A DNA stretch of 64,000 bases from Squalus acanthias (taxonomy: Eukaryota). The notes below the pieces were generated by a model. It made no database searches. It had not been told where the DNA came from and saw only the letters and a list, made by a program, of their open reading frames with translations. The position numbers were made by a program, and so were the translations under genes. This document shows positions 1 through 51,837 of this stretch, piece by piece; within the stretch, counting starts at the first letter, position 1, and every line of letters begins with the position of its first letter. The stretch spans positions 372,001 to 436,000 of the forward strand of contig JASTWF010000093.1 in assembly GCA_030390025.1 (NCBI GenBank), written 5' to 3'.

Positions 1-1690
1 CCCTAGAGGAATATATGTTTGCTGAAAATTATGCATTATTTCCTTGAATGTTAGCCATTGTATGTCCACCTTCATACCTTTTAGTGTAGTCTCCCAATCT
101 ACCATGGCCAACTTGTCCCTCATACCCTTGTAGTTTCCTCTGTTTAGATTGACGACCTTAGTTTCAGATTGGACTACATCACTCTGAAAATTAATGTAAA
201 ATTCAATCATATTATGGTCACTTGTCCCTAAAGGCCCCTTTACCACAAGATTATTGATTAGCCCTTTCTCATTACACAGTACCAGATCCAGAATAGCCTG
301 TTCCCTGGTTGGTTCCTCTACATACTGATCCAGGAAACCATCTCGCATGCATTCCAAGAATTCGTCCCCCACACCATTAGTGGTAATTTGATTTGCCCAG
401 TCCATATGTAGATTAAAGTCCCCCATGATTACCGTATTGCCCTTGTTACATGCACTTCTAATTTCTGGATTGATACTGTGCCCTACATTACCATTACTGT
501 TTGGTGGCCTATACACAACTCCCACCAATGTTTTCCGCCCTTTGCTGTTTCTTAGCTCCAACCAAACTGAATCCAGTTCTACATCACGATCTGCCGAGCC
601 AAGATCTTTTATCTCTACCGTACCGATCTCATCCCTTATTAACAGCGCTACGCCACCTCCTTTTCCTTTTTGTCTGTCCTTCCTAAATGTTGAGCACCCT
701 GGAACATTCAGTTCCCAGCTTTGGTTACCCTGCAGCCATGTCTCTGTAATGGCAATGACATCATATCCATTTACTTCTATTAGTGTCATTAATTTCATCC
801 ACCTTGTTGCGAATGCTACGTGCATTTAGATAAAGTGCCTTCAACTTTGCCTGTTTAATATTTTTCTGCACTTTGACCCTCTTTGCTGTTGGCCTTTGTT
901 TCTGCTCCCTACTAGTTTTGCTGACTACTTTTCTAACTTGCACTTCCAGCTTTGTTTCTCTCCATTCTGGGCCCACACTTAGGTTCCCAGCCCCCTGACA
1001 AACTAGTTTAAATCATTCCCAACAGCACTAGCAAACCCCCCTGCGAGGATATTGGTCCCAGTTCTGCCGAGGTGTAATTCGTCCAGCTTGTACAGGTCCC
1101 GCCTTCCCCAGATTCGGTCCCAATGCCTCAGGAATTTAAATCACTCCCTCCCACACCATCTCTCCAGCCATGCATTCATCTGGTCTATTCTCCTATTTCT
1201 GCTCTCGCTAGCACGTGGCCCTGGGAGTAATCCTGAGATTACTACCTTTGAGGTCCTGCTTTTTCATTTATTTCCTAGCTCCCTATATTCTGCTTGCAGG
1301 ACCTCATCCCTCTTTCTACCTATGGCGTTGGTACCGATATGGACCACGACCTCTGGCTGTTCACCATCCCCCTTCAGAATGTCCTGCAGCCGCTCAGTGA
1401 CATCCTTGACCCTGGCACCAGGGAGGCAACATACCATCCTGGAGTCACATCTGCGGCCACAGAAACGTCTATCTGTTCCCCTTACGATAGAATCCCCTAT
1501 CACTATTGCCCTCCCACTCTTTTCCTCCCCTCCTGTGCAGCTGAGCCACTCGTAGTGCCACGGACTTGGCTCTTGCTGCATTCCCCTGAGAAACCATCTC
1601 CCCCAGCAGTATCCAAAACGGAAAATCTGTTGGAGAGGGAGATGGACCCAGGGGACTCCTGCACTACCTTCCTACTTCTTTTACTCTGAC
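1..1690 (-). mobile_element. CR1 LINE 5' portion (ORF1 SGNH esterase plus APE endonuclease), degenerate, cut by the window edge
   Basis: Minus ORFs AIVIGDSIVRG..VVVHIGTN and LKALYLNARSIRNKVDE; near-identical to 29149-30835. Confidence 0.9.
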
Positions 1691-1726
1691 TGGCAAGGAC
1701 AGCATTTATTGCCCATCCCTAACTGC

Positions 1727-2352
1727 CATCTTCAGCTGCTTCATCAATGACCTTCCCTCCAACATAAGTTCAGAAGTGGGGATGTTCGCTGATGACTGCA
1801 CAGTGTTCAGTGCCATTCACAACTCCTCAGATAATGAAGCAATCCATGCCCGCATGCAACAAGACCTGGACGACGTTTAGGCTTGGGCTGATAAGTGGCA
1901 GGTAACATTCGCGCCACAGAAGTGCCAGGCAATGACTATCTCCAAGAAGCGAGAGTCTAACCACCGCCCCTTGACATTCAATGGCATTACCATCGCCGAA
2001 TCCCCCAGCATTAACATCCTGGGGGTCACCATTGACCAGAAACTTAACTGGTCCAGCCACATAAGTACTGTGGCAACAAGAGCAGGTCAGAGGCTAGGTA
2101 TTCTGCGACGAGTGTCTCACCTCCTGACTCCTCAAAGCCTTTCTACCATCTACAAGGCACAAGTAAGGAGTGTGATGGAATGCTCTCCACTTGCCTGGAT
2201 GAGTGCAGCTCCAACAACACTCAAGAAGCTCGACACCATCCAGGACAAACAGCCCGCTTGATTGGCACCTCATCTCCCACCTTAAACAGTCACTCCCTCC
2301 ACCACTGGCGTACCGTGGCTGCAGTGTGTACCATCTACAAGATGCACTGCAA
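1727..2352 (+). mobile_element. Second LINE family (CR1/L2-group RT), C-terminal fragment
   Basis: FADDC..WADKWQVTF..ILGVTIDQKLNWSSHI..LSTIYKAQVRS. Confidence 0.85.
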
Positions 2353-3114
2353 ATACTGATTAAGAAATACCATCCTTAAATTCCTTTCAGAATAATGGAA
2401 CCACAAAGCCTCATAATGCTCTTTTAGTCTATATTTAAAATACTCTTTCAGATTTATTCTTCTACCCTTATAAAACAGAGCATTCCTTCATGGCATGATC
2501 GGGCGTTTTCAGAGTAGTAGGGTAGGCATCTGCTGATTGGCTTTCCCTTTACCTAAAGGCTTGCAGTCCTGTCGTCTAGCTTATGTTTCCTTTTATATTC
2601 CTTTCTCCCCTTCCCCACCTTGCTCTCTTGATCCTCAGGCTTCCCCACACACACAAACTACAAGCCCTACCCTTCATTGCCTTCCCCTTGCCTCAACCTT
2701 CAAAACTCCATTAGCTCCACCCTTCCTTACCTCGCTCACCCACTCACTCACTGCTGTAAAAACGCTGCTCCTTCCTGCCTCAAAATACACACAATTAGGG
2801 AGCAGCTTTTTCTCCTCTCCCAGGCCCGGCTGCTTAAAACAGGCTCAAGCCCACAACCCAATTCAAGACGCCTTTGCCCAATTCAGACCAGAACAAGATG
2901 TGGGCCTTTCTGCACATTGATAAAAGCCGCCCGCGTGGCCCCAATTTGGCCAGCAGGCCGACCCAGCAGCAGAACGTGCTACAAGGAAATGAGCCGAGGA
3001 AAGAGAGCGAGCACATGAGAGAGCGAGAGGGAAAGAGGGAGGGAGCGCGCACAAGCCATCAGCTAAAAAGGTTTCCAAATGAAGGCAGTGTCAGTGCAGC
3101 ATCAAAGCATCAGC

Positions 3115-3205
3115 CTAAGTTTTTGTGCTCAAGTCTCGAGAGGGACTTGGAACCCACAACCTTCTGACCCAGACACAAGAGTGCTACCCACTGAGCCACG
3201 GCCGA
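3115..3205 (-). mobile_element. tRNA-derived SINE head fragment
   Basis: Reverse complement has an A box (tggctcagtgg) and a B box (ggttccaagtcc) like the full SINEs in the window. Confidence 0.7.
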
Positions 3206-4230
3206 CCCTGTATGTGAGGGGCACTACAGAAATGCAGGTTGTTGTTGTCCAAGTGCCTATTCTTTTTGTGCAGCGACTGCCGGTAAACTATTCGACTGCG
3301 GGGTAAGCCCAACGCTACCCTTATCGGGCATCTGCTTCGCACTGCAGGAGGGATCAGGAATGGGAATCTCGGATGTTTCTCTTTTGCTCCGATTGCCCAG
3401 GAAGCTGAGGTCAGTTGCATCCATTCCTGTTGATTGTTTCAGCAAGAACCTCAAAACCATCAACCCTGGGGGCTTCTTTAATTTGCACAGCTCAGCGCTA
3501 CAAAAAGTGCTTGGAGACTGAGGCACTGGGGAGGTCCTGTGTCCAGCACATGTTAGGTAGTGGAGAGCTGGAAGTGGTTACATGGCAGTAAACTCATAGA
3601 GGGGTTCAGATGATGCCATAAACTCCCAGAGTGAAGCTTGAGTGGTGTATAACTCTGAGATGACATTGCAGCCTTCAAATCGTTCCTATGTACCAGTATG
3701 TTTTGTGATATTCGAACTGCAGACTTCAAGGGGGTGCTTTTATTTCTGTGAGCATCCACTTCTTTGCCAACAGATGAAAACACTGATGTACCCTCCACAC
3801 TGCATTGCTGAGAGTTTCTTCCCCGAAGGATTAACCACTGCAAGTACTGAATGAGAATCAACAATCGGTATACGTCTATATTACATTTCAAAGGCCAGTG
3901 GGTTATACAAAATCCAAGAAAACTTACAAACACCAAAGGCGGGGTTTACGATGATCGTGATACAAATGTCTTATGTTGTGCAATCTGCTGCTCCCTGGAA
4001 TGCATTCCATTTCTATCTCATGTTTCACCCCTTTCAAATAATTTTGCTTAGTTTTTTTTGCGATTCTCATACAGACTCTACTTCATCTCATTCTTAAGAA
4101 TAAAGACAGCCTCACAAGTTTCATTGGGTTTACAAGCGGTCTCACTCTTTTTGATCCTGAGCATACTAAAAGTCATGTGACATGTTTCTTGTAAATGTAA
4201 CATTGACTTCTCAGGACATTTTCCTGTCAC

Positions 4231-4548
4231 TTTCGGATGAGACGTTAAACTGAGGCCCCGTCTGCTCTCTCAGGTGGATGTAAAAGATCCCACGGCACTA
4301 TTTCGAAGAAGAGCAGGGGAGTTATCCCCGTTGTCCTGGCCAATGTTTATCCCTCAACCAACATCACGAAAACAGATTATCTGGTCATTATCACATTGCT
4401 GTTTGTGGGAGCTTGCTGTGCACCAATTGGCTGCTGTGTTTCCTACACTACAACAGTGACTACACTCCAAAAAGTACTTCATTGGCTGTAAAGTGCTTTG
4501 GGACGTCCGGTGGTCATGAATGGCGCTGTAGAAATGCAAGTCTTTCTT
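4231..4548 (+). mobile_element. 5'-truncated Deu-domain-type SINE
   Basis: ggatgagacgttaaactgaggcccc..gtaaaagatccc..ggcactattt core; tail aatgcaagtctttcttt. Confidence 0.8.
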
Positions 4549-4779
4549 TTTCTATTTTTTCCATTTCTGTCCTGTCTGTAATGATTTTCTGTCACAGTTA
4601 AACTTGCTTTTTTAAAATCATATTTTTCTCTTTCCCGCCGCAAGGCTGGTTGATTCTTCCCATGTGTCTCACTCCCAAAGTCGTCCTCTGAACTGACTCA
4701 CTCAGGTCCGTTCGGAAGTTGCTCTCTCCCTCCCAGGAAGTTGTATTTTTTAAATTGTTTTTCTGCTGCCTGACTGGCA

Positions 4780-5880: not shown

Positions 5881-5911
5881 TGGGAGCGTCCCAGCGTCAT
5901 CCCGACACCGA

Positions 5912-8900
5912 TTGGGGTGAATCTTTTATTCAAACCAATAATACCAATTACATAGTAAAACCATTACATTCATCCATCACAGTAAATACAGTACAAATAC
6001 CCCCAAACAATACCACACTTTTTTTTTACATTTAAAATAATACATCTCAGTTAACTCCACATAAAACAACCCATTTCAACACCACAGTGTACAAACACAT
6101 AGCACCATCACAATCCAACTAAATGCCACAGATAACATCCACTCCAATAACCCAAGAAACCTGTTCCACGCCAGTCCCACTGGCACCGCCCACCCGACCA
6201 TCCACTCAAATTGTTCGTCCGATCATTCAAGCGTTCGTCCGTTCACACCTCTGCCGACCAGCCGCCCCGCCCTGGGCCCCCCGCCTGGGGTTCTCCGTGC
6301 TGGGCCTCCCGCCCAGGCCACTTCGATTGGGGTGAATCTTTTATTCAAACCAATAATACCAATTACATAGTAAAACCATTACATTCATCCATCACAGTAA
6401 ATACAGTACAAATACCCCCAAACAATACCACACAATTTTTTTTTTTAGATTTAAAATAATACACCGATTGGGGTGAATCTTTTATTCAAACCAATAATAC
6501 CACTCATCAATTACATAGTAAATCCATTACATTCATCCATCACAGTAAAACATAAGCTTTAAAAACAGCCTTATAGTTAATATAATGCAATGATTAATCT
6601 TACAAACAATCAATAATGTTTACAGTACAAATACCCCCAAACAATACCACACAAATTTTTTTTTTTTACATTTAAAATAATACATCTCAGTTAACTCCAC
6701 ATAAAACAACCCATTTCAACACCACAGTGTACAAACACATAGCACCATCACAATCCAACTAAATGCCACAGATAACATCCACTCCAATAACCCAAGAAAC
6801 CTGTTCCACGCCAGTCTCACTGGCACCGCCCACCCAACCATCCACTCAAATTGTTCGTCCGATCATTCAAGCGTTCGTTCGTTCACACCTCTGCCGACCA
6901 GCCGCCCCGCCCTGGGCCCCCCGCCTGGGGTTCTCCGTGCTGGGCCTCTCGCCCAGGCCACTCTCCTCCGGGTCTTCCACCTTGGGCCTTCTGCACCGGA
7001 CCCTCCGCACCGGCATTCCCCGCGAGCAGCCGGGGTGAATCAGCCGCATCTCCTGACTCCACCTCTGCCGACCAGCCGCCCCGCCCTGGGCCCCCCGCCT
7101 GGGGTTCTCCGTGCTGGGCCTCCCGCCCAGGCCACTCCGATTGGGGTGAATCTTTTATTCAAACCAATAATACCAATTACATAGTAAAACCATTACATTC
7201 ATCCATCACAGTAAATACAGTACAAATACCCCCAAACAATACCACACAATTTTTTTTTTTAGATTTAAAATAATACACCGATTGGGGTGAATCTTTTTAT
7301 TCAAACCAATAATACCAATTACATAGTAAAACCATTACATTCATCCATCACAGTAAATACAGTACAAATACCCCCAAACAATACCACACTTGTTTTTTAC
7401 ATTTAAAATAATACATCTCAGTTAACTCCACATAAAACAACGCATTTCAACACCACAGTGTACAAACACATAGCACCATCACAATCCAACTAAATGCCAC
7501 AGATAACATCCACTCCAATAACCCAAGAAACCTGTTCCAGGCCAGTCCCACTGGCACCGCCCACCCAACCATCCACTCAAATTGTTCGTCCGATCATTCA
7601 AGCGTTCGTCCGTTCACACCTCTGCCAACCAGCCGCCCCGCCCTGGGCCCCCCGCCTGGGGTTCTCCGTGCTGGGCCTCCCGCCCAGGCCACTTCGATTA
7701 GGGTGAATCTTTTATTCAAACCAATAATACCAATTACATAGTAAAACCATTACATTCATCCATCACAGTAAATACAGTACAAATACCCCCAAACAATACC
7801 ACACAATTTTTTATTTTTTTTTAGATTTAAAATAATACACCGATTGGGGTGAATCTTTTATTCAAACCAATAATACCACTCATCAATTACATAGTAAATC
7901 CATTACATTCATCCATCACAGTAAAACATAAGCTTTAAAAACAGCCTTATAGTTAATATAATGCAATGATTAATCTTACAAACAATCAATAATGTTTACA
8001 GTACAAATACCCCCAAACAATACCACACAAATTTTTTTTTTTTACATTTAAAATAATACATCTCAGTTAACTCCACATAAAACAACCCATTTCAACACCA
8101 CAGTGTACAAACACATAGCACCATCACAATCCAACTAAATGCCACAGATAACATCCACTCCAATAACCCAAGAAACCTGTTCCACGCCAGTCCCACTGGC
8201 ACCGCCCACCCGACCATCCACTCAAATTGTTCGTCCGATCATTCAAGCGTTCGTCCGTTCACACCTCTGCCGACCAGCCGCCCCGCCCTGGGCCCCCCGC
8301 CTGGGGTTCTCCGTGCTGGGCCTCTCGCCCAGGCCACTCTCCTCCGGGTCTTCCACCTTGGGCCTTCTGCACCGGACCCTCCGCACCGGCATTCCCCGCG
8401 AGCAGCCGGGGTGAATCAACCGCATCCTTCGACTCCACCTCTGCCGACCAGCCGCCCCACCCTGGGCCCCCCGCCTGGGGTTCTCCGTGCTGGGCCTCCC
8501 GCCCAGGACACTCCGATTGGGGTGAATCTTTTATTCAAACCAATAATACCAATTACATAGTAAAACCATTACATTCATCCATCACAGTAAATAAAGTACA
8601 AATACCCCCAAACAATACCACACTTTTTTTTTAAGATTTAAAATAATACACCGATTGGGGTGAATCTTTTATTCAAACCAATAATACCAATTACATAGTA
8701 AAACCATTACATTCATCCATCACAGTAAATACAGTACAAATACCCCCAAACAATACCACACAATTTTTATTTTTTATTTTTTTTAGATTTAAAATAATAC
8801 ACCGATTGGGGTGAATCTTTTATTCAAACCAATAATACCAATTACATAGTAAAACCATTACATTCATCCATCACAGTAAATACAGTACAAATACCCCCAA

Positions 8901-8968
8901 ACAATACCACACAATTTTTTTAGATATAAAATAATACACCGATTGGGGTGAGTGTAGCCCTTAAAGAC
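5912..8968. repeat. Complex tandem array: about 140-bp core units plus longer units, with a 1.37-kb higher-order duplication
   Basis: ttggggtga at about 5912, 6327, 6467, 7141, 7282, 7698 (variant), 7844, 8517, 8655, 8805 and 8943; flanked by catcccgacaccga on both sides. Confidence 0.95.
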
Positions 8969-9029
8969 CCATCCCGACACCGACTGGAGTTGCAAATTGT
9001 CCGGGGCGTTCCCAGCGGTCAGCCTAATG

Positions 9030-9062
9030 ATAATGACGTAGCAGGCAGGGACTATAAAAGAG
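9030..9062 (+). promoter_or_regulatory. Putative Pol II promoter of the B7-like gene (CRE-like TGACGTA plus TATAAAAG)
   Basis: tgacgta at about 9034 and tataaaag at 9053, in CpG-rich DNA about 200 bp upstream of the signal-peptide ATG. Confidence 0.6.
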
Positions 9063-9437
9063 AGCGGGCTGCGGGCGCCGTCCCATAGAGAGAGCGGAGC
9101 TCCGAGGGTTCAGATCTCGGTCATCGAGCTCTGTCCCGGGTGCCGCCGGAACCCTCCATAAGATGCGGGTCTTTAGCAGCTGTGGAAACCGATAAAGAAA
9201 CGATTTTCACTGATCGTCGTCTTGTCTTGTCTTGTTTTGACAGCTGTCGAGGAGAGCAAATTATGGTGAGAAGTCTGCTCGCTGTTTTGGTGGCTGTTCA
9301 ATTCAGTTTGGCTCGAGGTAAGTCTTTAAATGTAACTGTTTCCTTGCACACATTAGAATGAACGATCCACACAGTTTGAGGTGGTCTTTTCACCACTGAG
9401 CAATGGCCCAAAGCAATAACAGTACTTTCACTTGTAA

Positions 9438-11262: not shown

Positions 11263-12809
11263 TTATTTTGTGGTGTTTACTGATCATGTTGCTGCAGTTA
11301 CTTTTTTTGATGTCCATTTTGTGAGGTGAGGGAACAAAACTTTTTCTATTTCAATAGATCACAGAAAATATCAACCCAGGAAATATCAACCCTTCTGGAG
11401 AAGAGAAAATACAGCTGTGGGGATAATTACTACTTAGTGCTTTCCTGTGTTCAAGATTAAATCTCGTATTAATCATCCTTTTAAAGTAAAATATTCTGAA
11501 GAGTCAAGATTAAATCTCTTGGAACAATGCTGTTACTAATCTATTTGTTTGAATTCACAGCTCAGTTTCAAGTCCACACCCCAGAAGCACCAGTGACTGC
11601 TGTCTACGGCCAGTACACGGTGCTGAGTTGCAGCTTTACAGCTCAGGGTGAATCGTCACTGTATCTGCTGTTCATCAGTTGGCACCGTGTCGAGACGGAG
11701 GAAGTTGTTTATAGTTATTATTCTGGAAAAGAGCAACTGAGTCGCCAAAGCCCTCGGTATTCGGGGAGGACAAGCTTATTCCCAGAGGAATTAAAACAAG
11801 GGAACGTTTTGGTGAAGCTGGACAGAGTGAGACCAGAGGATGCTGGACAGTACCTGTGCTTAGTCAGGAACGCAAAAGGAAATGGCCAGGGCATTGTGTC
11901 TCTAATATTTGCAGGTACATGCTTCTTTCAGTTTTCATTTTTGTTCTGTCAGTGCTGCAAATTAAAGTCATGCTTCTTGGCCTCCCCTGATGGCTCAGTG
12001 AGTCTCGCCATTGAGTGCCTGAGCCGTACAGACCATGTTTGATGTCCAGAATGTGCTGGTGTAGCTCCTCTCCGCTGGAGCAGTGCTATTGGTGCAATCG
12101 ACACACCTCGGTTAGGGTTGGCACTCCCGTTTGCTATTCAGCAAGCCCTGCCTGTGGACGGCTCTAGGATCGGGCTGAACTGTGATGGCCTCGCAGGTGA
12201 AAAGCCCACTGATATTTACCATCAAGGGTTACGTATGATTTTGGCTGAACAGCTGCCAGCAGGATATTGTGGGATTTTCACCTTCAACTTGATCACTTGG
12301 TACAATGATTTGAATATCTCCAAATTGATCACAAACAGCAATATCTACTATTCTGTTTGTACTTTGATTTGTTGTTTTTGAGCATTTAAAGCTTTTATTG
12401 CATTATTCAATTAGTTATTAACTGGAACAAAATTCCTAGTTGGCATTATTTTTATCAAGTTTATTTCTTGTTTCTAATGACCCTTTTTTTAATCTACAGC
12501 ATACTACAAGGAACCTGACTTTTTTATCCAATTAACACCTTCCTGGACAGTGTTCAGATTCGAGTCCCAAGGTTAACCTGAGGCTACTGTTTCCTGGTAC
12601 AATGAAGAAAATGAGGATATTTCCACACTGTCTGAGACTTCGTACCAACAAAGTGGAGATGGTCTATACTCCCTGCAGAGTATTCTGCAAATCAATGACA
12701 CCAATAGGAGTTCGAACTACACATTCAGATTAAGAAATGATGTTCTACACCAATCAGTTTCTCGAACATTTGGTCTTTCTGTAGGTAAGTTGTGTCCTAC
12801 ACTCAGTAC

Positions 12810-29100: not shown

Positions 29101-31500
29101 TTCTTTTGTTAGCCATGGTTGGATCACTTTTCCTTTTGGGTTTTTATGCCTGAGAGGAATATATGTTTGTTGCAAATTATGCATTATTTCCTTGAATGAT
29201 AGCCATTATATTTCCACCTTCATACCTTTTAGTGTAGTCTCCCAATCTACCATGGCCAACTTGTCCCTCATACCCTTGTAGTTTCCTCTGTTTAGATTGA
29301 CGACCTTAGTTTCAGATTAGACTACATCACTCTCAAAATTAATGTAAAATTCAATCATATTATGGTCACTTGTCCCTAAAGGCCCCTTTACCACAAGATT
29401 ATTGATTAGCCCTTTCTCATTACACAGTACCAGATCCAGAATAGCCTGTTCCCTGGTTGGTTCCTGTACATACTGATCCAGGAAACCATCTCGCATGCAT
29501 TCCAAGAATTCGTCCCCCACACCATTAGTGGTAATTTGATTTGCCCAGTCCATATGTAGATTAAAGTCCCCCATGATTACCGTATTGCCCTTGTTACATG
29601 CACTTCTAATTTCTTGATTGATACTGTGCCCTACATTACCACTACTGTTTGGTGGCCTATACACAACTCCCAACAATGTTTTCCGCCCTTTGCTGTTTCT
29701 TAGCTCCACCCAAACTGATTTCAGTTCTACATCATGATCTGCCGAGCCAAGATCTTTTATCTCTACCATACCGATCTCATCCCTTATTAACAGCGCTACG
29801 CCACCTCCTTTTCCTTTTTATCTGTCCTTCCTAAATGTTGAGTACCCTGGAACATTCAGTTCCCAGCTTTGGTTACCCTGCAGCCATGTCTCTGTAATGG
29901 CAATTACAACATATCCATTTACTTCTATTAGTGCCATTAATTCATCCACCTTGTTGCGAATGCTACGTGCATTTAGATAAAGTGCCTTCAACTTTGCCTG
30001 TTTAATATTTTTCTGCACTTTGACCCTCTTTACTGTTGGCCTTTGTTTCTGCTCCCTACTAGTTTTGCTGACTACTTTTCTAACTTGCACTTCCAGCTTT
30101 GTTTCTCTCCATTCTGGGCCCACACTGAGGTTCCCAGCCCCCTGACAAACTAGTTTAAATCATTCCCAACAGCACTAGCAAACCCTCCTGCGAGGATATT
30201 GGTCCCGGTTCTGCCGAGGTGTAACCCGTCCAGCTTGTACAGGTCCCGCCTTCCCCAGAATCGGTCCCAATGCCTCAGGAATTTAAATCCCTCCCTCCTA
30301 CCCCATCTCTGCAGCCACGCATTCATCTGGTCTATTCTCCTATTTCTGCTCTCGCTAGCACGTGGCACTGGGAGTATTCCTGAAATTACTACCTTTGAGG
30401 TCCTGCTTTTTAATTTATTTCCTAGCTCCCTATATTCTGCTTGCAGGACCTCGTCCCTCTTTCTACCTATGTCGTTGGTAACGATATGGACCACGACCTC
30501 TAGCTGTTCACCCTCCTCCTTCAGAATGTCCTGCAGCCGCTCAGTGACATCCTTGACCCTAGCACCAGGGAGGCAACATACCATCCTGGAGTCACATCTG
30601 CGGCCACAGAAACATCTATCTGTTCCCCTTACTATAGAATGCCCTATCACTATTGCTCTCCCACTCTTTTTCCTCCCCTCCTGTGCAGCTAAGCCACTCG
30701 TAGTGCCACGGACTTGGCTCTTGCTGCATTTCCCTGAGAAACCATCTCCCCCAGCAGTATCCAAAACGGAAAATATGTTGGAGAGGGAGATGGACCCAGG
30801 GGACTCCTGCACTACCTTCCTACTTCTTTTACTCTGTCTGGCAAGGCCAGCATTTATTGCCCGTCCCTAACTGCCATCTTCAGCTGCTTCATCAATGACC
30901 TTCCCTCCAACATAAGGTCAGAAGTGGGGATGTTCGCTGATGACTGCACAGTGTTCAGTGCCATTCACAACTCCTCAGATAATGAAGCAATCCATGCCCG
31001 CATGCAACAAGACCTTGACGATGTTCAGGCTTGGGCTGATAAGTGGCAGGTAACATTCGCGCCACAGAAGTGCCAGGCAATGACTATCTCCAACAAGCGA
31101 GAGTCTAACCACCGCCCCTTGACATTCAATGGCATTACCATCGCCGAATCCCCCACCATCAACATCCTGGGGGTCACCATTGACCAGAAACTTATCTGGT
31201 CCAGCCACATAAATACTGTGGCAACAAGAGCAGGTCAGAGGCTAGGTATTCTGCAGCGAGTGTCTCACCTCCTGACTCCCCAAAGCCTTTCTACCATCTA
31301 CAAGGCACAAGTAAGGATTGTGATGGAATACTCTCCACTTGCCTGGATGAGTGCAGCTCCAACAACACTCAAGAAGCTCGACATCATCCAGGACAAACAG
31401 CCCGCTTGATTGGCACCCCATCTACCACCTTAAACATTCACTCCCTCCACCACCGGCGTACCGTGGCTGCAGTGTGTACCAGCTACAAGATGCACTGCAA
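26150..31500 (+). mobile_element. Plus-strand LINE RT split by a nested CR1 (halves 26150-27099 and about 30878-31500)
   Basis: KAMGPDNIP..NYRPISLLS..ALDIKAAFDRVWH..PQGSVLGPT resumes as IFSCFINDLP..MFADDC after the insert. Confidence 0.9.
27098..30835 (-). mobile_element. Near full-length CR1 LINE (ORF1 esterase, ORF2 APE-RT), frameshifted
   Basis: ORF 30150-30812 with DGLHL; ITETWL..VYRPP..GDFN..SDH; FADD RT; ttcttatg tail. Confidence 0.95.
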
Positions 31501-33840
31501 ATACTGATTAAAAAATACCATCCTTAAATTCCTTTCAGAATAATGGACCCACAAAGCCTCATAATGCTCTTTTAGTCTATAATTAAAATACTCTTTCAGA
31601 TTTATTCTTCTACCCTTATAAAACAGAGCATTCCTTCATGGCACGATCGGGTGTTTTCAGAGTAGTAGGGTAGGCATCTGCTGATTGGCTTTCCCTTTAC
31701 CCAAAGGCTTGCAGTCCTGTTGTCTAGTTTATGTTTCCTTTTATATTTCTTTCCCCCCTTCCCCACCTTGCTCTCTTGATCCTCAGGCTTCCCCACACAC
31801 ACAAACTACAAGCCCTACCCTTCATTGCCTTCCCCTTGCCTCAACCTTCAAAACTCCATCAGCTCCACCCTTCCTTACCTCGCTCACCCACTCACTCACT
31901 GCTGTAAAAACGCTGCTCCTTCCTGCCTCAAAATACACACAATTAGGGAGCAGCTTTTTCTCCTCTCCCAGGCCCGGCTGCTTAAAACAGGCTCAAGCCC
32001 ACAACCCAATTCAAGCCGCCTTTGCCCAATTCAGACCAGAACAAGATGTGGGCCTTTCTGCACATTGATAAAAGCCGCCCGCGTGGCCCCAATTTGGCCA
32101 GCAGGCCGACCCAGCAGCAGAACGTGCTACAAGGAAATGAGCCGAGGAAAGAGAGCGAGCTCATGAGAGAGTGAGAGGGAAAGAGGGAGGGAGCGCGTAC
32201 AAGCAATCAACTAAAAAGGTTTCCAAATGAAGGCAGTGTCAGTGCAGCATCAAAGCATCAGCCTAAGTTTTTGTGCTCAAGTCTCTGGAGAGGGACTTGG
32301 AACCCACAACCTTCTGACCCAGACACAAGAGTGCTACCCACTGAGCCACGGCCGACCCTGTATGTGAGGGGCACTACAGAAATGCAGGTTGTTGTTGTCC
32401 AAGTGCCTATTCTTTTTGTGCAGCAAGTGTCGGTAAACTATTCGACTGCGGGGTAAGCCCAACGCTACCCTTATCGGGCATCTGCACTGCAGGAGGGATC
32501 AGGAATGGGAATCTCGGATGTTTCTCTTTTGCTCCGATTGCCCAGGAAGCTGAGGTCAGTTGCATCCATTCCTGTTGACTGTTTCAGCAAGGACCTCAAA
32601 ACCATCAACCCTGGGGGCTTCTTTAATTTGCACAGCTCAGCGCTACAAAAAGTGCTTGGAGACTGAGGCACTGGGGAGGTCCTGTGTCCAGCACATGTTA
32701 GGTAGTGGAGAGCTGGAAGTAATTACATGGCAGTAAACTCATAGAGGGGTTCAGATGATGCCATAAACTCCCAGAATGAAGCTTGAGTGGTGTATAACTC
32801 TGAGATGACATTGCAGCCTTCAAATCGTTTTGATGTACCAGTATGTTTTGTGATATTCGAACTGCAGACTTCAAGGGGGTGCTTTTATTTCTTTGAGCGT
32901 CCACTTCTTTGCTAACAGATGAAAACACTGATGTACCCTCCACGCTGCATTGCTGAGAGTTTCTTCCCTGAAGAATTAACCACTGCAAGTACTGAATGAG
33001 AATCAACAATCGGTATACGTCTATATTACATTTCAAAGGCCAGTGGGTTATACAAAATCCAAGAAAACCAACAAACGCCAAAGGCACGGTTTACGATGAT
33101 CGTGATACAAATGTCCTATGTTGTGCAATCTGCTGCTCCCTGGAATGCATTCCATTTCTATCTCATGTTTCACCCCTTTCAAATAATTTTGCTTAGTTTT
33201 TTTGCGATTCTCATACAGACTCTACTTCATCTCATTCTTAAGAATAAAGACAGCCTCACAAGTTTAATTGGGCTTACAAGTGGTCTCACTCTTTTTGATC
33301 CTGAGCATACTAAAAGTCATGTGACATGTTTCTTGTAACTGTAACACTTACTTCTCAGGACATTTTCCTGTCACTTTCGGATGAGATGTTAAACCGAGGC
33401 CCCGTCTGCTCTCTCAGGTGGACGTAAAAGATCCCATGGCACTATTTTGAAGAGTAAGGGAGTTCTCCCCGGTGTCCTGGCCAATATTTATCCCTCAACC
33501 ACCATAACAAAAACAGATTATCTGTTCATTTTCACATTGCTGTTTGTGGGAGCTTGCTGTGCACAAATTGGCTGCCGCATTTCCTACATTACAACAGTGA
33601 CTCCACTTCAAAAAGTACTTCATTGGCGGCAAAGTGCTTTGGGACGTCTGGTGGTTGTGAAAGGCGCTATAGAAATGCAAGTCTTTCTTTCTTTAAAACC
33701 TACCTCTTTGACCAAGCTTTTGGTCACCTGCCCTAATTTCTCCTCATGTGGCTCGGAGTCAAATTTTTTGTCTCATAACGCTCCTGTGAATCGCCTTGGG
33801 ACGTTTTACGACATTAAAGGCGCTGTATAAATACAAGTTG
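29149..33840 (+). repeat. Segmental duplication copy 2 (lacks about 1.18 kb between two SINEs)
   Basis: Colinear with 1-5881. Confidence 0.95.
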
Positions 33841-33869
33841 TTTTTTATTGGTTAGCGCTTTCAGTGAAC

Positions 33870-36164
33870 TCTTTTTGGTTCGGGTGCTAAAACAAATGAT
33901 CTGTAACTAATAAAACTTTACAAATTAAATTAAAATTTTGTTGGCCGGGGTGATGATGCACTCCAGTCCCCGCGGCGCCCACCGGTCGCGGAATGCCTCG
34001 AGCGTGCCGGTGGACACCGCGTGCTCCATCTCCAGGGCCACCCGGGCGTGAACATAGCCACGGAAGAGAGGCAGGCAATCGGGCCGAACGACCCCCTCGA
34101 CCACCCACTGCCTGGAACCGTTAATGGCTACTTTGGCCAGGCCCAGGAACAGTCCCACGAGGAGGTCCTCCGACCTGCCCGCTCCCCTCCGCACCGGGTG
34201 ACCAAAGATCAGGAGCGTGGGACTGAAGTGCGGCCAAAAATCGAGGATCAGCCCCTACAAATACTGGAAGAGGGGCTGCAATCTCGCACATTCCATGTAA
34301 ATATGGAAGACGGACTCCTCTAGGCCGCAGAAAAGGCAGGTGGCCTGGGAGTCCATGAACTTGTTTAAAATCTTATTGCACGGGACTGCTCGGTGCAACA
34401 CCCTCCAGGCCAAGTCCCCAATAGATAAAGGGAGGACTCCCGCATAGAGAGCCCTCCATTGGGGACCTTCGCCTCCGCCGGACGGCAAGATGGCACGTCA
34501 AGGCATGTCCGGACGGCAGGCGAAGATGACAAAGTGGAGAGGGTGCAGGAGCAGCGCGTACAAGAAACCCCTCCGCGCAGAACTAAAAGGCACGGAGGGC
34601 ATTTCCCCGAGACGGCTCAAGTTGTGAGGTGCCGGTTCCCGAGAGGGGTTTCGGGGCCGCGCGCCGATGAGGAATTACGTCCCAGTTCGGATGGGATCAC
34701 CCCACGTGCTTGAGCCTCCTCGATACACCTAGTGCAATGAGGGCCTAGTGCCACTTTCAGCGACTCGATGACTTTGGCCGCGAGCCAGACGTCGGCCCAG
34801 GAGAGGCGCCGCGCCAACTCCTCCGGCGCCATCCAGCCCGCTCCTCCGCCATCGAGCAGGTCCCTGATTCTAGTCACCTTGCCAGGCACAGCCCTACCCT
34901 CCCGCCAGCCGCCCGAACCAGCGGTCGTGGAGGTGCGGATTCCTGAACAGCGGCTCCCGAAGGACGGCCACCATTCCTGACGGGGGAGAACGCCGCCTGG
35001 AGGCGACGCTGTTCCAGACCCATAGCAGTTCCTGGTAGAAGACAGGCAGCTCCCACAGGTAGGCACGTGTACGGCCCAATTCCACAAACAGGAGCTGCGT
35101 GTCGTAGTTGAGGCCGTGCAGCTGGCAGAAGAAATATGTCGCCAGCGCACGCCATCTGGGAGGATTCTCAATGTACAGGTATCTCTGCAGCGTCCGAAGA
35201 TGGAAAGTCGCCGCCTGGGTGCGAAGGCACACCAGCGCCTGACCGCCCTCCCTAAGCGGGAGACTCAGAACTGCGGCAGAGACCCAGTGCTTCCTTTTGT
35301 CCCAGAAGAAGTCGATGAGCTTCTTCTGCATCTTGGCGACAAACGCAGGGGGAGGGATCAAAGTGATCAACCGGTACCACAGCATGGCGGCCACCAGCTG
35401 GTTTATGACCAGCGCTCGACCCCTGTAGGACAACACTCGGAGCAGTCCTGTCCAGCGTCCTAGGCGAGCGGTGACTTTGGCCTCCAGCTCATGCCAGTTC
35501 GCCGGCCAGGCGTCTTCGGCGGGGCAGAGGTAGACTCCCAAGTAGAGGAGGTGCATGGTGCTCCAGGCGAAGGGCCTGAACTCCTCCGGCAGGGAATCCA
35601 CCTGCCATGGGCCCACCAGGAGTCCAGAACATTTTTCCCAGTTGATCTTGGCGGAGGATGCGTCCGAGTAAATCTGCTGGCATTCTCGCATCCTCCGCAA
35701 GTCGACGGGATCCGTGAACATGAGGAGCACGTCATCGGCGTAAGCCGAGAGGACGACCTCCACGCCCGGCCCTTGCAGAGACAGTCCCATCAACCTGTTC
35801 CGCAAGAGGCGCAGGAAAGGCTCCACGCAGACGGCGTATAACTGACCGGACATGGGGCATCCCTGACGTACCCCCCTCCCGAAGCGAAGGGGCGCCGTCA
35901 AAGACCCGTTGACTTTTATCAGTCACTCCGCGGCGGCGTACAGAAGTCGGATCCGGGCGACGAAATGCTTCGGCAAGTCCTCCCACAAAACTCTGCGCGC
36001 ATCCTCGCTGGACGGATCCAGCGAGAACAGAGCCCCGTAATAGGCCCGGGCCTCCGCGCTGATTCCCTCCGGATCCGAGACCAGAGATCCGTCGTCGGCC
36101 AGCAGCCCCAAGAGCTGCTTACGGACCCCCCGTCTTTTTTCCAGCGAGTAGAAGAAGGGGGAGC
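33870..36164 (-). mobile_element. 5'-truncated, internally deleted Tx1 retrotransposon (related subfamily)
   Basis: RGVRQGCPMSG..SAYADD..CLFCGLEESVFHIYMEC; junction LWEDLPK|HFVARI; 3' end ccaaaaagag. Confidence 0.92.
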
Positions 36165-38060: not shown

Positions 38061-38459
38061 CTCTCGTGATGCTTAACCACATGGCATTTGCCCACTATTT
38101 ACAAATGTTACTGCATTTCCCTCAGAATCACCAACACCACCCCCCTCCAATCCCCATCCATCCTCCATAAAATACTTGCAATCCCGGCTCCCAGTGGGGA
38201 TTTGTGCCTCGCAGGGAGTGAGGGTCAGAGGATTGGGGCTACAGTGCAACAGCTCAAATCCCCAACCTCTGCTCCCTTCCAGCGTGGCGTTCCTCCAGGA
38301 GCACAGAATCTGCTATTTACACAAGGCAAAGGACATTCTGCATGTTTATGCCGATGCCACCTTAACAAATGTGATTACATTCAGGAAGCTTTTTAATGCT
38401 CTTTCTTTCACTTCTAATAATTCACTCACAATAAAGACATTTTTCAAGGCATTCACCCA

Positions 38460-39578
38460 GCCGCTGGTGGGTGGGGAATTTCAGAAATCCCCACCGAACA
38501 AAGCAGAGGAGGTATTTGCCACTGTGCCCTCCGCGCCACCCAGCTATTCGGCAACCTGGGTAAGGAAGGAAGTGGTAGAAGTAGAGGAAGAGCCCCCTGA
38601 GGTAGAAGTGAAGCCGGGACCGTTGTGTCCGGTCACGGGTATCAAGAGGGGCCCGAACGGAGCAGGTGGGGCAGAGGGGGATCTCCTCAACCAGCTCGTG
38701 TTGCCTCACAGCTCACACCAGCTGAGGGCTATGATCAGTCACGTACGGAAGCTGGCCGAGTCAGACGACCCTTCCGTACATTTCAGGGAGGTAGAGCAAA
38801 CCGCAGCCATTAACGGCTGCGACGATGGGGAAAAAGCAAAAATGCTGTTGTTCTCATTAGACAGCTCGATCCTTCAGTGTCTCTCAGACGAGAGCAAGAG
38901 GGGAAATAATACCTATGGGGAATTGAGGGACGAGGTCCTGGAAGTGTTGGGAGCGGACGATGAAGGTCCGTTCGTTAGATTGGGACAAACAGTGCAGATG
39001 GAGGGAGAACCCCCGAAGGTTTTCGCCGACAGGCTGTGGCCAGTATATCAACGTAGCTGCCCAGGCGCGCCAGCGCGTCACCGCATAGACGGTGTCGGTT
39101 TAACTCATTGGCTCAGGTGTGTAGTAACCAACAGTTTGCCAGCCGTCAGGGAGCAGGCCAAAGCGTGGTTTGATCCCACTAACCCCGCCACAACAGAGGA
39201 GTCGGTCCTAAATCGACTCACGGTAGGGTACCGTAATACCAGGAGTGCGGGAGCACGTCCCCTTAAGGGAAAGGTGCATGAGGCGCGGCCCACAGCCCCG
39301 GCTCAAAAGGAGTGGCATCAGGAGGGAAATCGCGTCCCACAGGCCAGTAATGCTTGTTTCGGATGCGGAAAGACAGGGCACTGGCGCAAGACTGCAGGAA
39401 TCCTTGGAAGGAGTCCAGGGATAAAAATCCCGCAGTCCGAGCCCAGGCGCCTGTCTCTGATAGGGGAGCTGGTGCACCTATCCATCCCGATGCGATAGAA
39501 TCAATGTTGGGAGCCATGCGGTCTCTTATGATTTCGCACGGAAAGGTAGCAACAGCCCCGTCCGCCGGTACCCAATGA
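38460..39578 (+). CDS. gag: Retroviral/LTR gag, 5'-truncated, with a 1-nt frameshift in the zinc knuckle
   Basis: PSAPPSY late domains; capsid MHR-like QMEGEPPKVFADRL; CFGCGKTGHWR/DC knuckle split across frames at about 39389. Confidence 0.85.
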
Positions 39579-41219
39579 CTGGAACCGGTGCAGCCTGCCT
39601 ACCTGTGTCCTTTTAAAAGACACGCACAGGAGGGGGTCTCCTGTAAGGAGGCCAGGTTAAAAGAGCAGGCCTTGCGGGAGGAGAACGCCCGTTTAATGGG
39701 AAAAATAGACGTGCTAGAAGGGCAGCTTAGAGAGATAAAAGCAGCCTACAGGGTAGCCAGAAGCAGGGAGAATGAGGATTTAAATCAGTGCAAACTGTAT
39801 AAGCCGGGTGCACAAGGGCCAACCACAGGGGCCAAACCTGCGAGTGGGGACTCGCAGCCCCAGGTAGGGCCTCAGGGCACACAGGCAGGCAAAGCAGCTT
39901 GCATCAGGGGAGAGGACATCCTAGCAAAATGTAGGATCCTTTATTTGGGTTGGGAGTCAGATGAGGAAGAGTTCGAGGAGCTCAACGAAGATAGTGACAC
40001 AAGCGAAGAGGAGCTGGAATCGGAGGACGAAAGGGTCGCCCCCGATTCAGGTATAGGGGAGACAGGGGCTGCAGATAGAGATCCACACAGGGTGGAGGCC
40101 GAAGCTGCATGTCCCGAACGCAGGGGGGCGGAGCTAGGGGAGGCGGAGCCAGCCGCTGTGGTGGGACCACAGGGCGTGGCGATGGAAGCCTCAGAGCCCG
40201 AGCCACCCGCCTTGAACGTCTTGCCCTCGAGGGAGGTAGGGACTGCGAGCAAAGGGCCGCCTACTGGGCCAAGTAGGGCGGTGCCACAAGCTGCAGATCC
40301 CGAGTTCAGGGAGGCGGAGTCAGGGGAGGCGGAGCCAGCGACTGTGGTGGGACCACAGGTCGCCACGGTGGAAGTCTCGGAACCCGGTCCGTCAGTCCTG
40401 GAGTTCCTGCCCCCGGTAGTTCCCCGTAGGTCAGGTCGGACACCCCAGCCCAGGAAGGCGTGGTCAAGTCCCCCGTACGCCCCCAGGCGTAAGTTCAAGG
40501 TCAAGGCAGCCCAGGGAGAGCCCAGTCACAGCGCAGCAGCAACAGGCTGTGGCAGATCAAAGGGAGGGGTCAATGCCCTCCCACCGTTGGGAGAAGCCTG
40601 CGGCAGCAACCGCAGAATTTGGGTGGAGAAGGATCGGGGAGGAGCATCGTGTGGGGTGTGGGGAAGGATCGGGGAGGAGCATCGTGTGGGGTGTGGGGAA
40701 GGATCGGGGAGGAGCATCATGTGGGGTGGGGGGAAGGATCGGGGAGGAGCATCGTGTGGGGTGGGGAAGGATCGGGGAGGAGCATCATGTGGGGTGGGGA
40801 AGGATCGGGGAGGAGCATCGTGTGGGGTGGGGAAGGATCGGGGAGGAGCATCGTGTGGGGTGTGGGGAAGGATCGGTGCGGAGCATCGTGTGGGGTGGGG
40901 GGATGGATCGGGGCTGGAGCGTCGTGTTGGGTGGGGGGAAGGATCGGGGAGGAGCATCGTGTGGGGTGGGCGGTGGGGCACTGGAAGGATTGGAGTACAC
41001 GTGCACCAATTGGAGTCATCGGGGGTGTGGATTGGGTGTGTGGGTTGGAGGCCATGTGGGGGGGACTTGAAGGTCTCCGGGTTTGCTCGGGGGTGGAATT
41101 GGGGATCTCAGGGTGTGTTTGGAGGTCTCGGGATGGGATTGGATTCACTCAATTCATTCACCTGGGAACGGGCGGCACTGTACAGTTATAAGATAAGTGA
41201 TGAGTTTATAAGTTTATAA
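39579..41219 (+). CDS. ORF-X in the pol position: coiled coil, acidic tract, low-complexity repeats; no PR/RT/RH/IN core
   Basis: In frame with the gag TGA; no D(T/S)G protease, YxDD or DDE integrase core recognisable; NQCKLY and PRRSGR..P..Y resemble integrase tails. Confidence 0.5.
   Translation: MEPVQPAYLCPFKRHAQEGVSCKEARLKEQALREENARLMGKIDVLEGQLREIKAAYRVARSRENEDLNQCKLYKPGAQGPTTGAKPASGDSQPQVGPQGTQAGKAACIRGEDILAKCRILYLGWESDEEEFEELNEDSDTSEEELESEDERVAPDSGIGETGAADRDPHRVEAEAACPERRGAELGEAEPAAVVGPQGVAMEASEPEPPALNVLPSREVGTASKGPPTGPSRAVPQAADPEFREAESGEAEPATVVGPQVATVEVSEPGPSVLEFLPPVVPRRSGRTPQPRKAWSSPPYAPRRKFKVKAAQGEPSHSAAATGCGRSKGGVNALPPLGEACGSNRRIWVEKDRGGASCGVWGRIGEEHRVGCGEGSGRSIMWGGGKDRGGASCGVGKDRGGASCGVGKDRGGASCGVGKDRGGASCGVWGRIGAEHRVGWGDGSGLERRVGWGEGSGRSIVWGGRWGTGRIGVHVHQLESSGVWIGCVGWRPCGGDLKVSGFARGWNWGSQGVFGGLGMGLDSLNSFTWERAALYSYKISDEFISL
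40620..40975 (+). repeat. G-rich minisatellite (33-36 bp unit ggggaaggatcggggaggagcatcgtgtggggt, about 10 copies)
   Basis: Directly visible tandem units. Confidence 0.95.
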
Positions 41220-41442
41220 GTTTAAGTTTATAGTTTTAAATCAGGTTAAGTTTGTAGTTTAATTTTTTTAACAGAAAATGGTAAAATGATGGGAGTTAGA
41301 AATAGGAATAGTTAAAGTCTATCCAGTGCACATGTCTTCTTACGTGAGGCGAGGTCAGGGGACCCGCTCACCCTTCACAAAAGCCAGAGACTCTTGGGAG
41401 GCTGGCTACCTCATTCTATCTGATCACAGGAACCAAGGAAGG

Positions 41443-43794: not shown

Positions 43795-44231
43795 ACAGAC
43801 AAAATAGCGTCACTCCAGTTTTCCACGTGCGCCTCGGAATTGTTGAAATCGATCGTGATTTTCTCAGAAACTGTAATTAAGTTTGGAACTCTACATGTTT
43901 AAGAGTTGGTTTTTGATTATTTTGATTTGGTGTTGTTGAATATGATTGTTTGGTTGTTGTTGTTTTCTTTTTCCTTGAATAAAAAAATATATGCATATGC
44001 AGGTGATGCGAGAGGCATCGGCCTGGTTACACCTGGAAGGAAATGCACGCGGTGTAAGTTAAAGGCAAATGCTGCCTACGGTGTTATAAGAAAGTAATTT
44101 TCCTGGGAAATAAGGACGACACGGAGACCCTAGATAGTTTTAAGTTATGGGAATTTTTGGATATGGAGAATCGAGATAATATTGCTCACCACAATGTTTT
44201 TGATACGATAAGCGGAGTTATTCGCATCAAC

Positions 44232-44240
44232 AGGAGGGAC
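44232..44240 (+). promoter_or_regulatory. Polypurine tract
   Basis: aggagggac directly precedes TGTAG. Confidence 0.7.
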
Positions 44241-45874
44241 TGTAGAATTCGCAAAATTATCGCGATTTTATAAAATAAGAAGGAGACATAAAGTTTCGTA
44301 TGAACAGCTTTATTTCAGCAGAATGCTGTCAGGTTTCAAAACGGGCACAAACAGCCTGTAAAATGGCCGCCACGCCTCGTGGCAGAAAGTCCTAGGCTTT
44401 CAGTGGGCAGACAAGATGGCGTTCCAATAAACATATGTGCAAGATCGAACAGGACTCAGCACATTTGAGATCATTGACAATACATGATGGGTTTGCATTT
44501 TAAACATAAATACTGGAATCGGTCTCCCAGGTGCAAACAAGGGCTATTGTACTGAGCGATCAAGGACCCATCCAAAGACATTAATATGCAAAATCCCCAC
44601 GGCTCTACGATGAGAGAGCCATTTGCGGGTACTTACAGCAAGCATTTGGAAGCCCCAAAACCCCTCCAGGGAGACTACTAGCCGGTTCCACGATGGGAGA
44701 AATATTAACGGGTACTCAGACAGTTACAAGTGTCACCGAAACCCATTAAAGACTGAGATCACCCCATTCAAGAAGTTTGAGCGCCAAAACCCTGACAAAG
44801 ATAGATATTAAGATTGGGCGGGAAAAGAGGAATTACAGCACTATAACTGTAAGGTACAACTGTCCATCTTTCTCTTGCTGCTTTGACTCCGTGGAAGGCT
44901 GCTGAACTTTTATTCTCTTGCCTGACGGCTCTGGACTCTGATCCGCTAGGATCAACCTCGTGGCTTGCCGCGAAGATCTGTGGAGAACTGGGCTGTGAGG
45001 CCTGGAAGTGGGCGCACCATCCCGAGAAGTCGGTAAACGGTGTTGGAACCGAAGGCCCGAGATGAGATGAGATGAGATGAGATGAGAAGAGAAGAAGACG
45101 ACAATACGTATCGCCACGGTCAGTAAGCCCCGACCGCGCCTGTAAGTCGAATAAACACTTCTTCGAATTTTATCGGCTACTCCACAACTGGCCTAGGAAG
45201 ACCCTTCTTCGAGTTTTACAGACAACCGGTGTGAGGGCACAGGAAGACTCTTTTTTGAGTAGTATCAGAACTCCGAGGGCAACACAGATCTTCATGACAG
45301 CAGACGGTCCAGCCTGCTAGCCGGAGCAGAAGCGAGCAAACAAGTGGGGTACAGAGACCCCTGATCAACACGTGGATAGTCAGGTGCTGCGGTAAAAACA
45401 TCCGAGCAGAGTTTCGGAATTCTCCGAGTTATCACGAGTGGTGAGCATGAGTCTCGATCCTACAAATCTAGGTTAGGACAGGTATTGATAGGGGAGGGTT
45501 TAAGTTTTAAGGATAATTATAATGTGTGTCCCCTTTTTCGATGTGTCGTGTGCTCCTCGTTTCCCTAAAATTAGTTTCATAACTGTGTGTAAGATTGTAC
45601 TGTCATTAATCTGTGCTTATGACATGTATCTCGTAATCTTGAATAATATGCAATAAAGATTTTCCATTTTGCACTATTCAACCGGGTCTACCTGAGTTTT
45701 CTCTGCATTATTGCTCTCGCACCTAAGTCCAGTGTCAGAACCGTAAGGGCGAGTGGGTCGAACCACTCACAGGTGTCTAGTGTTATCAGGCTGGCTGGAG
45801 ACCAGAACAGGCAACAAGGCCTAACCCCGCACTAGCACCCAGGCTAAGCACAGAGCCACAGGTCACCCCTTACA
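44241..45874 (+). mobile_element. 3' LTR (1634 bp)
   Basis: TGTA...TACA termini; follows the PPT; AATAAA at 45151 and 45652; MROH homology starts at its right end. Confidence 0.75.
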
Positions 45875-48421: not shown

Positions 48422-48589
48422 GTCATAGAATCAGAGAAATTTACAGCACAGAAGGAGGCCATTCGGCCCATCTTGTCCGTGCTGGCCGACAAACAGCTAT
48501 CCACCCTAATCCCACTTTCCAGCACTTGGTCCGTAGCCTTGTAGGTTATGGCACTTCAAGTGCATATCCAAGTACTTTTTAAATGTGAT
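48422..48589 (-). mobile_element. CR1 3' tail, left half; continues at 63867-64000
   Basis: ..aagtactttttaaatgtgat joins aagggtctctgcctctaccaccctttcaggcagtgagttccag (reverse complement of LWNSLP-coding CR1 sequence). Confidence 0.8.
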
Positions 48590-51812: not shown

Positions 51813-51837
51813 GTAGAGGTTGCACTATGCTTCTGAG

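Follow-up and report, generated by a model that had tools for sequence, protein, structure and literature searches.

How a repeat array of about 3 kb, made of ten head-to-tail units on the minus strand with one common 3' junction, came to lie upstream of an immune-regulator gene is the question raised by this locus of Squalus acanthias, which we analysed within a 64,000-nt stretch of contig JASTWF010000093.1 (the window). A preliminary description had proposed that a second retroelement, nicking at a motif from the 5' end of a Tx1 LINE, inserted serially and regenerated its target each time at the right edge. Our comparisons support parts of this proposal and modify others. With considerable reserve, we hold it probable that a stray piece of Tx1 was hit at least twice at one nick by the inserted sequence, here called X, and that the array then grew by DNA duplication.

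Layout of the array

The array is enclosed by an exact 14-bp direct repeat, CATCCCGACACCGA, of which the window contains no third exact copy; the repeat had been seen before, and its right copy ends at 8983, one base beyond the 8982 first given (Table 1). Including their separators, the units come in three sizes, short (S, 137–151 nt), medium (M, 415–416 nt) and long (L, 673 nt), in the order M S L S M S L S S S. On the minus strand they end in AATAAAAGAT, followed by TCACCCCAATCG, exactly in nine of the ten units and with one extra A in U5, and the common 3' end described earlier is thereby borne out. There are eleven separators, ten of which read exactly TTGGGGTGA and one, at 7698, TTAGGGTGA. 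Each of the ten that follow a unit holds CGA plus the 9-nt motif (in one case with a substitution), and the bases before the separator go with the type of unit: ACACCGA after six of six short units, CCGA after two of two long units and TCGA after two of two medium units. The presence of outer-repeat bases in the separators marks them as copies of this locus, and the earlier observation of local flank bases in them extends to all ten that follow a unit. Two look-alikes, CCGGGGTGA at 7030 and 8406, lack the flank bases and are located inside the long unit, which therefore spans 6477–7137 and not 6467–7030 as had been proposed.

Table 1. Positions of the array, the neighbouring gene and the Tx1 copies in the window.
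Feature	Position	Strand	Remark
Outer direct repeat, left copy	5898–5911	+	putative target-site duplication of the 27-nt piece
Left 9 nt of Tx1-derived motif	5912–5920	+	followed by the nick used by all units
U1, medium unit with separator	5921–6335	-	short-type 3' part, long-type 5' junction, one internal repeat
U2, short unit with separator	6336–6476	-	
U3, long unit with separator	6477–7149	-	two 75-nt internal repeats 174 nt apart
Open frame of U3, 84 codons	within 6477–7149	-	stop at 6883–6885
U4, short unit with separator	7150–7290	-	
U5, medium unit with separator	7291–7706	-	
U6, short unit with separator	7707–7852	-	
U7, long unit with separator	7853–8525	-	
U8, U9 and U10, three short units with separators	8526–8951	-	U10 abuts the intact motif
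Intact 27-nt piece (orphan)	8943–8969	+	nt 1–25 as in both full-length Tx1 copies
Outer direct repeat, right copy	8970–8983	+	
CpG-rich promoter	8984–9319	+	CpG observed/expected 1.02; TATAAA at 9053
First coding exon of CD276/B7-like gene	9263–9319	+	signal-peptide-like
IgV and IgC exons of CD276/B7-like gene	11562–12785	+	best solved-structure match CD276 (E 3e-36)
Tx1 copy 3, 5'-truncated	33869–36164	-	about 91% identical, not in Penelope; terminus AAAAAGA
Penelope-like block	48576–63880	.	inverted terminal repeats holding both full-length Tx1 copies; 14-bp duplication flanks
Duplication segments of about 52 nt	48639–48690, 55808–55859, 56620–56676, 63800–63851		
Tx1 copy 1	48691–55807	+	ORF1 with zinc knuckle; endonuclease and RT in two overlapping frames
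Motif in Tx1 copy 1	49619–49643	+	12 nt before ORF1 start codon; 5' arm of inverted repeat
Inverted 16-nt copy in ORF1	49793–49808	-	codes SYTHP; 3' arm
Tx1 copy 2	56677–63799	-	open 1306-codon ORF2; motif (25 nt, exact) 62833–62857; ORF1 arm 62668–62683

The insertion point in a Tx1-derived motif

When the units are taken out of the array, a 27-nt piece remains between the outer repeats. Its first 25 nt recur, identical at 25 of 25 positions, in both full-length Tx1 copies, where they stand 12 nt ahead of the start codon of ORF1; the match in copy 1 had been reported, and the second exact copy and the inverted 16-nt copies are added here. The match continues over the insertion point, with 9 nt on one side and 16 nt on the other. 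It is the longest exact match between the array and the rest of the window, for which 60 of 60 shuffles (made with an approximate shuffler) gave 13–18 nt, and the 16-mer of the motif has five matches, a number that none of 100 shuffles reached. Since the 25-nt match spans the insertion point and exceeds the shuffles, the array is, judged by its sequence, an insertion into a Tx1-derived motif. It is very improbable that we are dealing with an ordinary minisatellite or an assembly expansion that matches Tx1 by chance. Most of the copy number does go back to DNA-level duplication, and the assembled unit count could be inflated, but the match lies far above the shuffles, and nested duplications of 14 bp and 12–16 bp together with private variants in most units are not what assembly error alone would produce. 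An ordinary minisatellite would contain neither nested duplications nor foreign flank bases, and the array contains both.

Number and order of the insertions

Only two 5' junction types occur among the ten units, one in all six short units and the other in the two long and two medium units, the medium junction being of the long type apart from one substitution. To call the units variably 5'-truncated is thus right as regards their three lengths and too strong as regards their junctions. Short and long units are distinguished by fixed indels of 7 and 71 nt and by two substitutions in 114 positions; four of the six short units are identical and the remaining two have one private change each, and the long units differ from one another at 10 of 658 sites, a rate similar to that between short and long. 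The medium units are best read as recombinants, because they mix a short-type 3' part with a long-type remainder; they lack the 174 nt between the two 75-nt internal repeats and retain the outer repeat's variant. On a larger scale, the block 5912–7281 aligns to 7282–8654 with 1351 matches, 14 mismatches and 13 gap columns (1365 aligned bases).

As the units show two distinct 5' junctions only, about two insertions at one nick can be assumed, and the sequence comparison favours two source variants that inserted there separately, with duplications of 13–16 bp (short type) and 12–13 bp (long type). The remaining copy number is, by the same comparison, due to duplication, deletion and recombination at the DNA level. 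Two elements of the preliminary description are supported by these data, namely insertion with duplication at one nick in the Tx1-derived motif (duplications of 12–16 bp, at least two events) and later amplification by duplication, for which the 1.37-kb block copy and the shared variants speak.

A single insertion is an unlikely alternative, in which X entered the orphan once and the short unit arose as an ACA–ACA tandem duplication, lost 7 and 71 nt, and spread by unequal exchange. The short junction is indeed also the exact product expected from tandem duplication at an ACA microhomology, with flank-ACA joined to unit-ACA, the substitution distance between short and long units is similar to that between the long units, and the medium units prove that deletion and recombination took place within the array; repeated targeting would be unnecessary. 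However, two large deletions within about 200 bp would be required before amplification, as well as an exchange within only 13 bp of homology that brought a short unit up to the intact right-edge motif, and the landing of X in a 27-nt piece stays unexplained.

Returning to two insertions, their order can be approached from the short unit's 5' junction, which has a 3-nt microhomology (TGT) with the original flank and not with the neighbouring unit. Such a junction match is found by chance at 25 of 657 break points in the long unit, or at 78 of 654 when duplication lengths of 11–15 are allowed. This microhomology provides moderate evidence and suggests that the short unit came first and that the long unit was inserted later at the unit/target junction, or that a 13-bp exchange reordered them. 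The intact motif is kept at the right edge only, and the unit beside it is a short one. An intact target at one edge is required by any insertion with duplication.

These observations also bear on the strict serial version, according to which an autonomous, site-specific element of Tx1 5' UTRs made every insertion at the regenerated right-edge target. The survival of the intact target at that edge only would agree with it. In R1 arrays, growth comes from new copies that enter the duplication at the 5' end of those already present (PMC2718515), and the endonuclease of Tx1L retains a weaker nicking activity if other bases are put in place of those 5' of the nick (PMC1950540), a tolerance that fits recognition of the side surviving at the right edge. 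Nevertheless, we regard this version as quite improbable: the ten units have two junction types only, U9 is like U6 and not like its neighbours in an A-interrupted T tract, the original-flank microhomology of the short junction (25/657) suggests that it formed first although it now stands at the 'youngest' edge, no coding capacity was found in X, and none of four Tx1 sites is occupied. The case for serial polarised growth as first proposed is weakened, since the ten units come down to two junction types and the short-junction microhomology is mildly against it; polarised growth as such is possible.

Origin of the 27-nt orphan

The orphan ends in AAAGACC, is flanked by the 14-bp duplication and has no tail, as is seen in tailless retrocopies. 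Its start coincides exactly with the base of a predicted helix around the Tx1 start codon, and its end falls inside the helix arm. When compared from one base before the duplication onwards, the outer site agrees with the target of X in 7 of 9 positions (background 197 of 121,810). Two origins may be considered from these features: either Tx1 sense RNA was primed internally and copied without a tail, or the orphan represents upstream and downstream target sequence (18 + 9 nt) carried on the RNA of X. As regards the former, there are 5 differences between Tx1 copies 1 and 2 in the 10 nt that follow AAAGA and precede the start codon, and a source variant that would give CATC(C) homology at the orphan priming site is plausible; none was seen in these two copies. 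A retro-copied piRNA (27 nt, first base T) was considered as well.

Two further ideas were rejected. In-place self-copying from a divergent promoter transcript predicts that U10 is closest to U9, with which the T-tract variants disagree, and an apparent empty paralogous site at 33840 shares its flank as part of a dispersed LINE and SINE tail. Neither the motif nor the 3' end of X had an exact match at any locus in the bacterial and archaeal genomes scanned, as expected for vertebrate DNA.

The resident Tx1 copies and their predicted start-codon hairpin

The resident LINE has the features of the Tx1 clade, with a zinc knuckle in ORF1 and endonuclease, RT and zf-RVT in ORF2, and Tx1 is closest to it by similarity (not by a tree). 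ORF2 of copy 2 is 50% identical over 99% to the Xenopus Tx1 ORF2 (UniRef name YTX2_X...), and the named matches of highest identity are from the cartilaginous fishes Heterodontus (75% over 26% of the query) and Hemitrygon (69% over 33%). Xenopus Tx1L likewise has endonuclease, RT and zf-RVT and is inserted in another transposon; in contrast to it, two of three copies of the resident LINE are found in a Penelope-like repeat, where a 52-nt duplication accompanies them, and the start codon lies within an inverted repeat. Compared with the full copies, the third one shows an internal gap of 530 nt, and no duplication was detected around it.

The motif forms one arm of a perfect 16-bp inverted repeat around the ORF1 start codon, and this is the longest inverted repeat in the Tx1 element, reached by 1 of 200 shuffles when non-overlapping arms are required. 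Per Tx1 there are two copies of the arm, one on either strand. In the two full-length elements, which are not independent, the 231 nt surrounding the start codon fold at z −6.5 and −6.8, in a stretch that was chosen post hoc. The predicted hairpin (49619–49808 and 62668–62857) could serve ORF1 translation control or be a small-RNA source. Covariation in the lower stem was rejected as weak, since the variable 10 nt pair no better than random; of 3000 random 10-mers, 600 paired as well for copy 1, 737 for copy 2 and 208 for the orphan. SYTHP is not conserved in five ORF1 homologs from sturgeon and turtle, and the motif is thus family-specific.

Both full-length copies sit at the same place in the inverted Penelope-like repeats, with a duplication of about 52 nt, which is long for a LINE. 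They are 98.4% identical overall, yet different at both termini, and these termini together with the 5 differences in 10 nt suggest separate insertions or conversion. The repeats themselves are enclosed by a 14-bp duplication (48576–48589 and 63867–63880, around 48590–63866) within a CR1-like 3' end whose reading frame continues over it. We take the fragments to belong to the CR1 and Penelope families; Pfam and Rfam assigned no name to them. This arrangement suggests a Tx1 family with a preference for Penelope repeats. Of the cascade first proposed, the nesting of Tx1 in Penelope and of Penelope in CR1 is thus seen, whereas its fourth tier is derived from one ectopic site. Beside the Tx1 insertion points, the Penelope-like repeats contain a CTGATGA...GAAA core, presumably a minimal hammerhead, which has no Rfam match.

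Identity of the inserted unit

Up to 661 nt of X are present in the array, comprising an open 84-codon low-complexity frame and a TG-rich 3' region without a tail. We found no family match in Pfam with five frames. One minus-strand frame matched no protein at E ≤ 1 among 507 candidates and nothing in the Atlas, and had no similarity to Tx1 ORF1; a second frame had no match in 1.84 billion representatives, and a comparison of X with 50 proteins gave none either. Over the whole window, Rfam had no match at gathering score, and the region 6300–7300 yielded four weak unrelated matches and no ribozyme. A SINE-type head (tRNA, 5S, 7SL or snRNA) was not found by Rfam in X, whose true 5' end may be absent. 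Folding of the 5' region of X (z +1.6) and of the short unit (z +1.5) is poorer than in shuffled sequences. Because the defining features that were looked for did not appear, among them the APE endonuclease with RT near the 3' end that marks a Tx1-clade ORF2, X is not filed as Tx1, R1 or SINE, and as no RT, endonuclease or homolog was found in it, only its junctions lead us to call it a retroposon. The second autonomous retroelement of the preliminary description has thus not come to light.

Elsewhere in the window X does not occur: its 3' 25-mer, with up to four mismatches allowed, has ten occurrences, all in the array. The 9-nt target has four copies outside the array, all in Tx1 (two in the UTR, two in ORF1), and none of the four carries a unit, a small sample as these sites come from two closely related Tx1 copies. 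The view of Tx1 as host is weakened by this; the motif is Tx1-derived, but the site that was used is a 27-nt piece outside Tx1.

The ends of the elements may point to a connection with Tx1 of another kind. By blastn with word size 7, X has no similarity to Tx1 beyond its terminus AAAAGA(T), and X and all three Tx1 copies end in AAAAGA plus one or two variable bases. Because X ends like the resident Tx1, a Tx1-type enzyme may move it. AAAAGA occurs at 0.06% of positions, and its sharing is less surprising than this raw frequency implies, since it overlaps the poly(A) signal. The sequences after three independent termini resemble the target of X, with a p of about 0.001 for the summed score, a statistic chosen post hoc, and single post-nick matches reach 5–6 of 9 (background 14% and 3%). 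Such indications agree better with a single machinery of Tx1 type that handles Tx1, the orphan and X alike than with a distinct autonomous element that hunts Tx1.

An additional observation concerns the long unit, in which 10 nt of the unit's own end/target junction recur as GATTCACCCC within a small hairpin (7030–7066 and 8406–8442). Such a copy was obtained in 7 of 3000 shuffles. Five of the ten differences between the long units fall within 12 nt at this hairpin (9 of 200,000 simulations), and pairing is largely kept.

Proposed course of events

The reading that we prefer would proceed in three steps. First, target-primed reverse transcription would most likely have placed a 27-nt copy of the Tx1 start-codon motif in the promoter, with duplication of 14 bp, the template being an internally primed Tx1 RNA fragment or target sequence on the RNA of the second element. 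Second, X, probably a non-autonomous retroposon, would have inserted at least twice at one nick, TTGGGGTGA^GTGTAGC, as its junctions indicate, with two source variants giving two events and the duplications of the short and long type. The enzyme would presumably be a Tx1-type endonuclease/RT that prefers this sequence; random landing in a 27-nt piece, and twice at one base, appears unlikely. The AATAAA of X is located 4 nt from its end, so that transcripts would read into the target and could pair with the nicked strand, and for an X that prefers this site, 3' flanks would begin TCACCCCAA. Third, as the shared variants show, unequal exchange, slippage and deletion between the internal repeats of X would have turned a short/long pair into M-S-L-S, and this block was then doubled and short units were added.

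Comparison with known systems

The process is known in kind, and it is the landing site that is unusual. Stacking at a duplicated target, even at an ectopic mini-target, has already been described for R1 and SINEU, on whose papers, in their accessible parts, the following comparison draws. In D. ananassae, a 22-bp copy of the 28S target outside the 28S gene attracted R1 insertions, and some R1 copies take target sequence along to new sites, 7–28 nt from upstream and up to 14 nt from downstream, with which the 18 + 9 nt of the orphan may be compared (PMC2718515). Tandem R1 arrays also share with our array the duplication on the 14-bp scale between units, the fixed 3' junction and variable 5' junctions with microhomology (PMC2718515). 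However, R1 is autonomous and targets rDNA, whereas here the target is a motif of another LINE in the promoter of a single gene, and X has no RT. The crocodilian SINEU-3/Tx1-Mar elements are non-autonomous passengers of Tx1-clade machinery with a preferred site in another transposon, and SINEU-3 tandem copies sandwich the duplication, which was ascribed to sequential insertion (PMC4494074); unlike them, X has neither an snRNA head nor a poly(A) tail. Other Tx1 families prefer piggyBac-, Mariner-, Harbinger- or LTR-type hosts, target preference being defined there as more than 20% of flanks, and the main text, in the part available, names no Tx1 or Penelope host (PMC4494074).

A double insertion that became a satellite has been reported with a dimer, a duplication at the junction, two distinct 5' truncations and a later array, as we see here; it differs in that known autonomous Drosophila elements were involved and that there was no nested mini-target, according to the accessible part (10.1101/158386). 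The orphan resembles tailless retropseudogenes, which are tail-free internal RNA fragments with flanking duplications; their priming relies on 2–18 nt of complementarity, and 5'- and 3'-truncated L1 fragments are common among them, but they are described, in the portion available, for therian L1 (PMC5322556). The Xenopus Tx1 endonuclease is given as sequence-specific in the accessible part of PMC1950540. In the literature that we covered, no case of LINE-on-LINE targeting of a start-codon hairpin was found, which is weak evidence of novelty, as most subscription journals and Repbase are outside this coverage.

The neighbouring gene and other features of the window

The array ends 70 bp before the TATA box of the CD276/B7-like gene. 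Similar GC-rich motifs at 5881–5897 and 9003–9013 flank the array, which puts 3 kb between them, and we take the latter motif to resemble an NF-kB site.

Remnants of LINEs and SINEs abound in the window. One LINE, whose ORF1 contains a GDSL-esterase domain, is present in two 96%-identical copies (5–4549 and 29153–33690). An LTR element at 38077–45220 has a gag-like ORF, a low-complexity accessory ORF with a 35-bp minisatellite (40628–40970), an open 834-codon env-like ORF and an apparent 3' LTR (44241–45220), the labels gag, env and LTR being inferred from the layout; no RT was found in its ORFs, and the Atlas gave one unnamed chordate cluster at 0.84, as a lead only. Maestro/MROH HEAT-repeat sequence on the minus strand (45844–47717, to about 48200) is intron-less with several broken frames and probably a retrocopy.

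Implications

At this one locus we have a clean record of how an array of kilobase size could result from two insertions, as we read them, at a single nick. Array copy-number change beside a B7-family promoter could, judging from position alone, affect expression. If X targets the Tx1 start-codon hairpin, a LINE-on-LINE target would be added to the known Tx1-clade targets, a retroelement would be seen seeding portable target sites, and a short defined site for a vertebrate sequence-specific endonuclease would be at hand. A further, doubtful possibility is that X is a hyperparasitic retroposon, the home of which is the Tx1 start-codon hairpin arm, and that its RNA, with target sequence at both ends, seeds 27-nt landing pads through off-target insertions, in this case in the promoter of an immune gene, where further copies would gather and arrays would form. 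Were this true, CR1, Penelope, Tx1 and X would form a four-tier nest, in which X would disable the translation start of its carrier and spread its own target.
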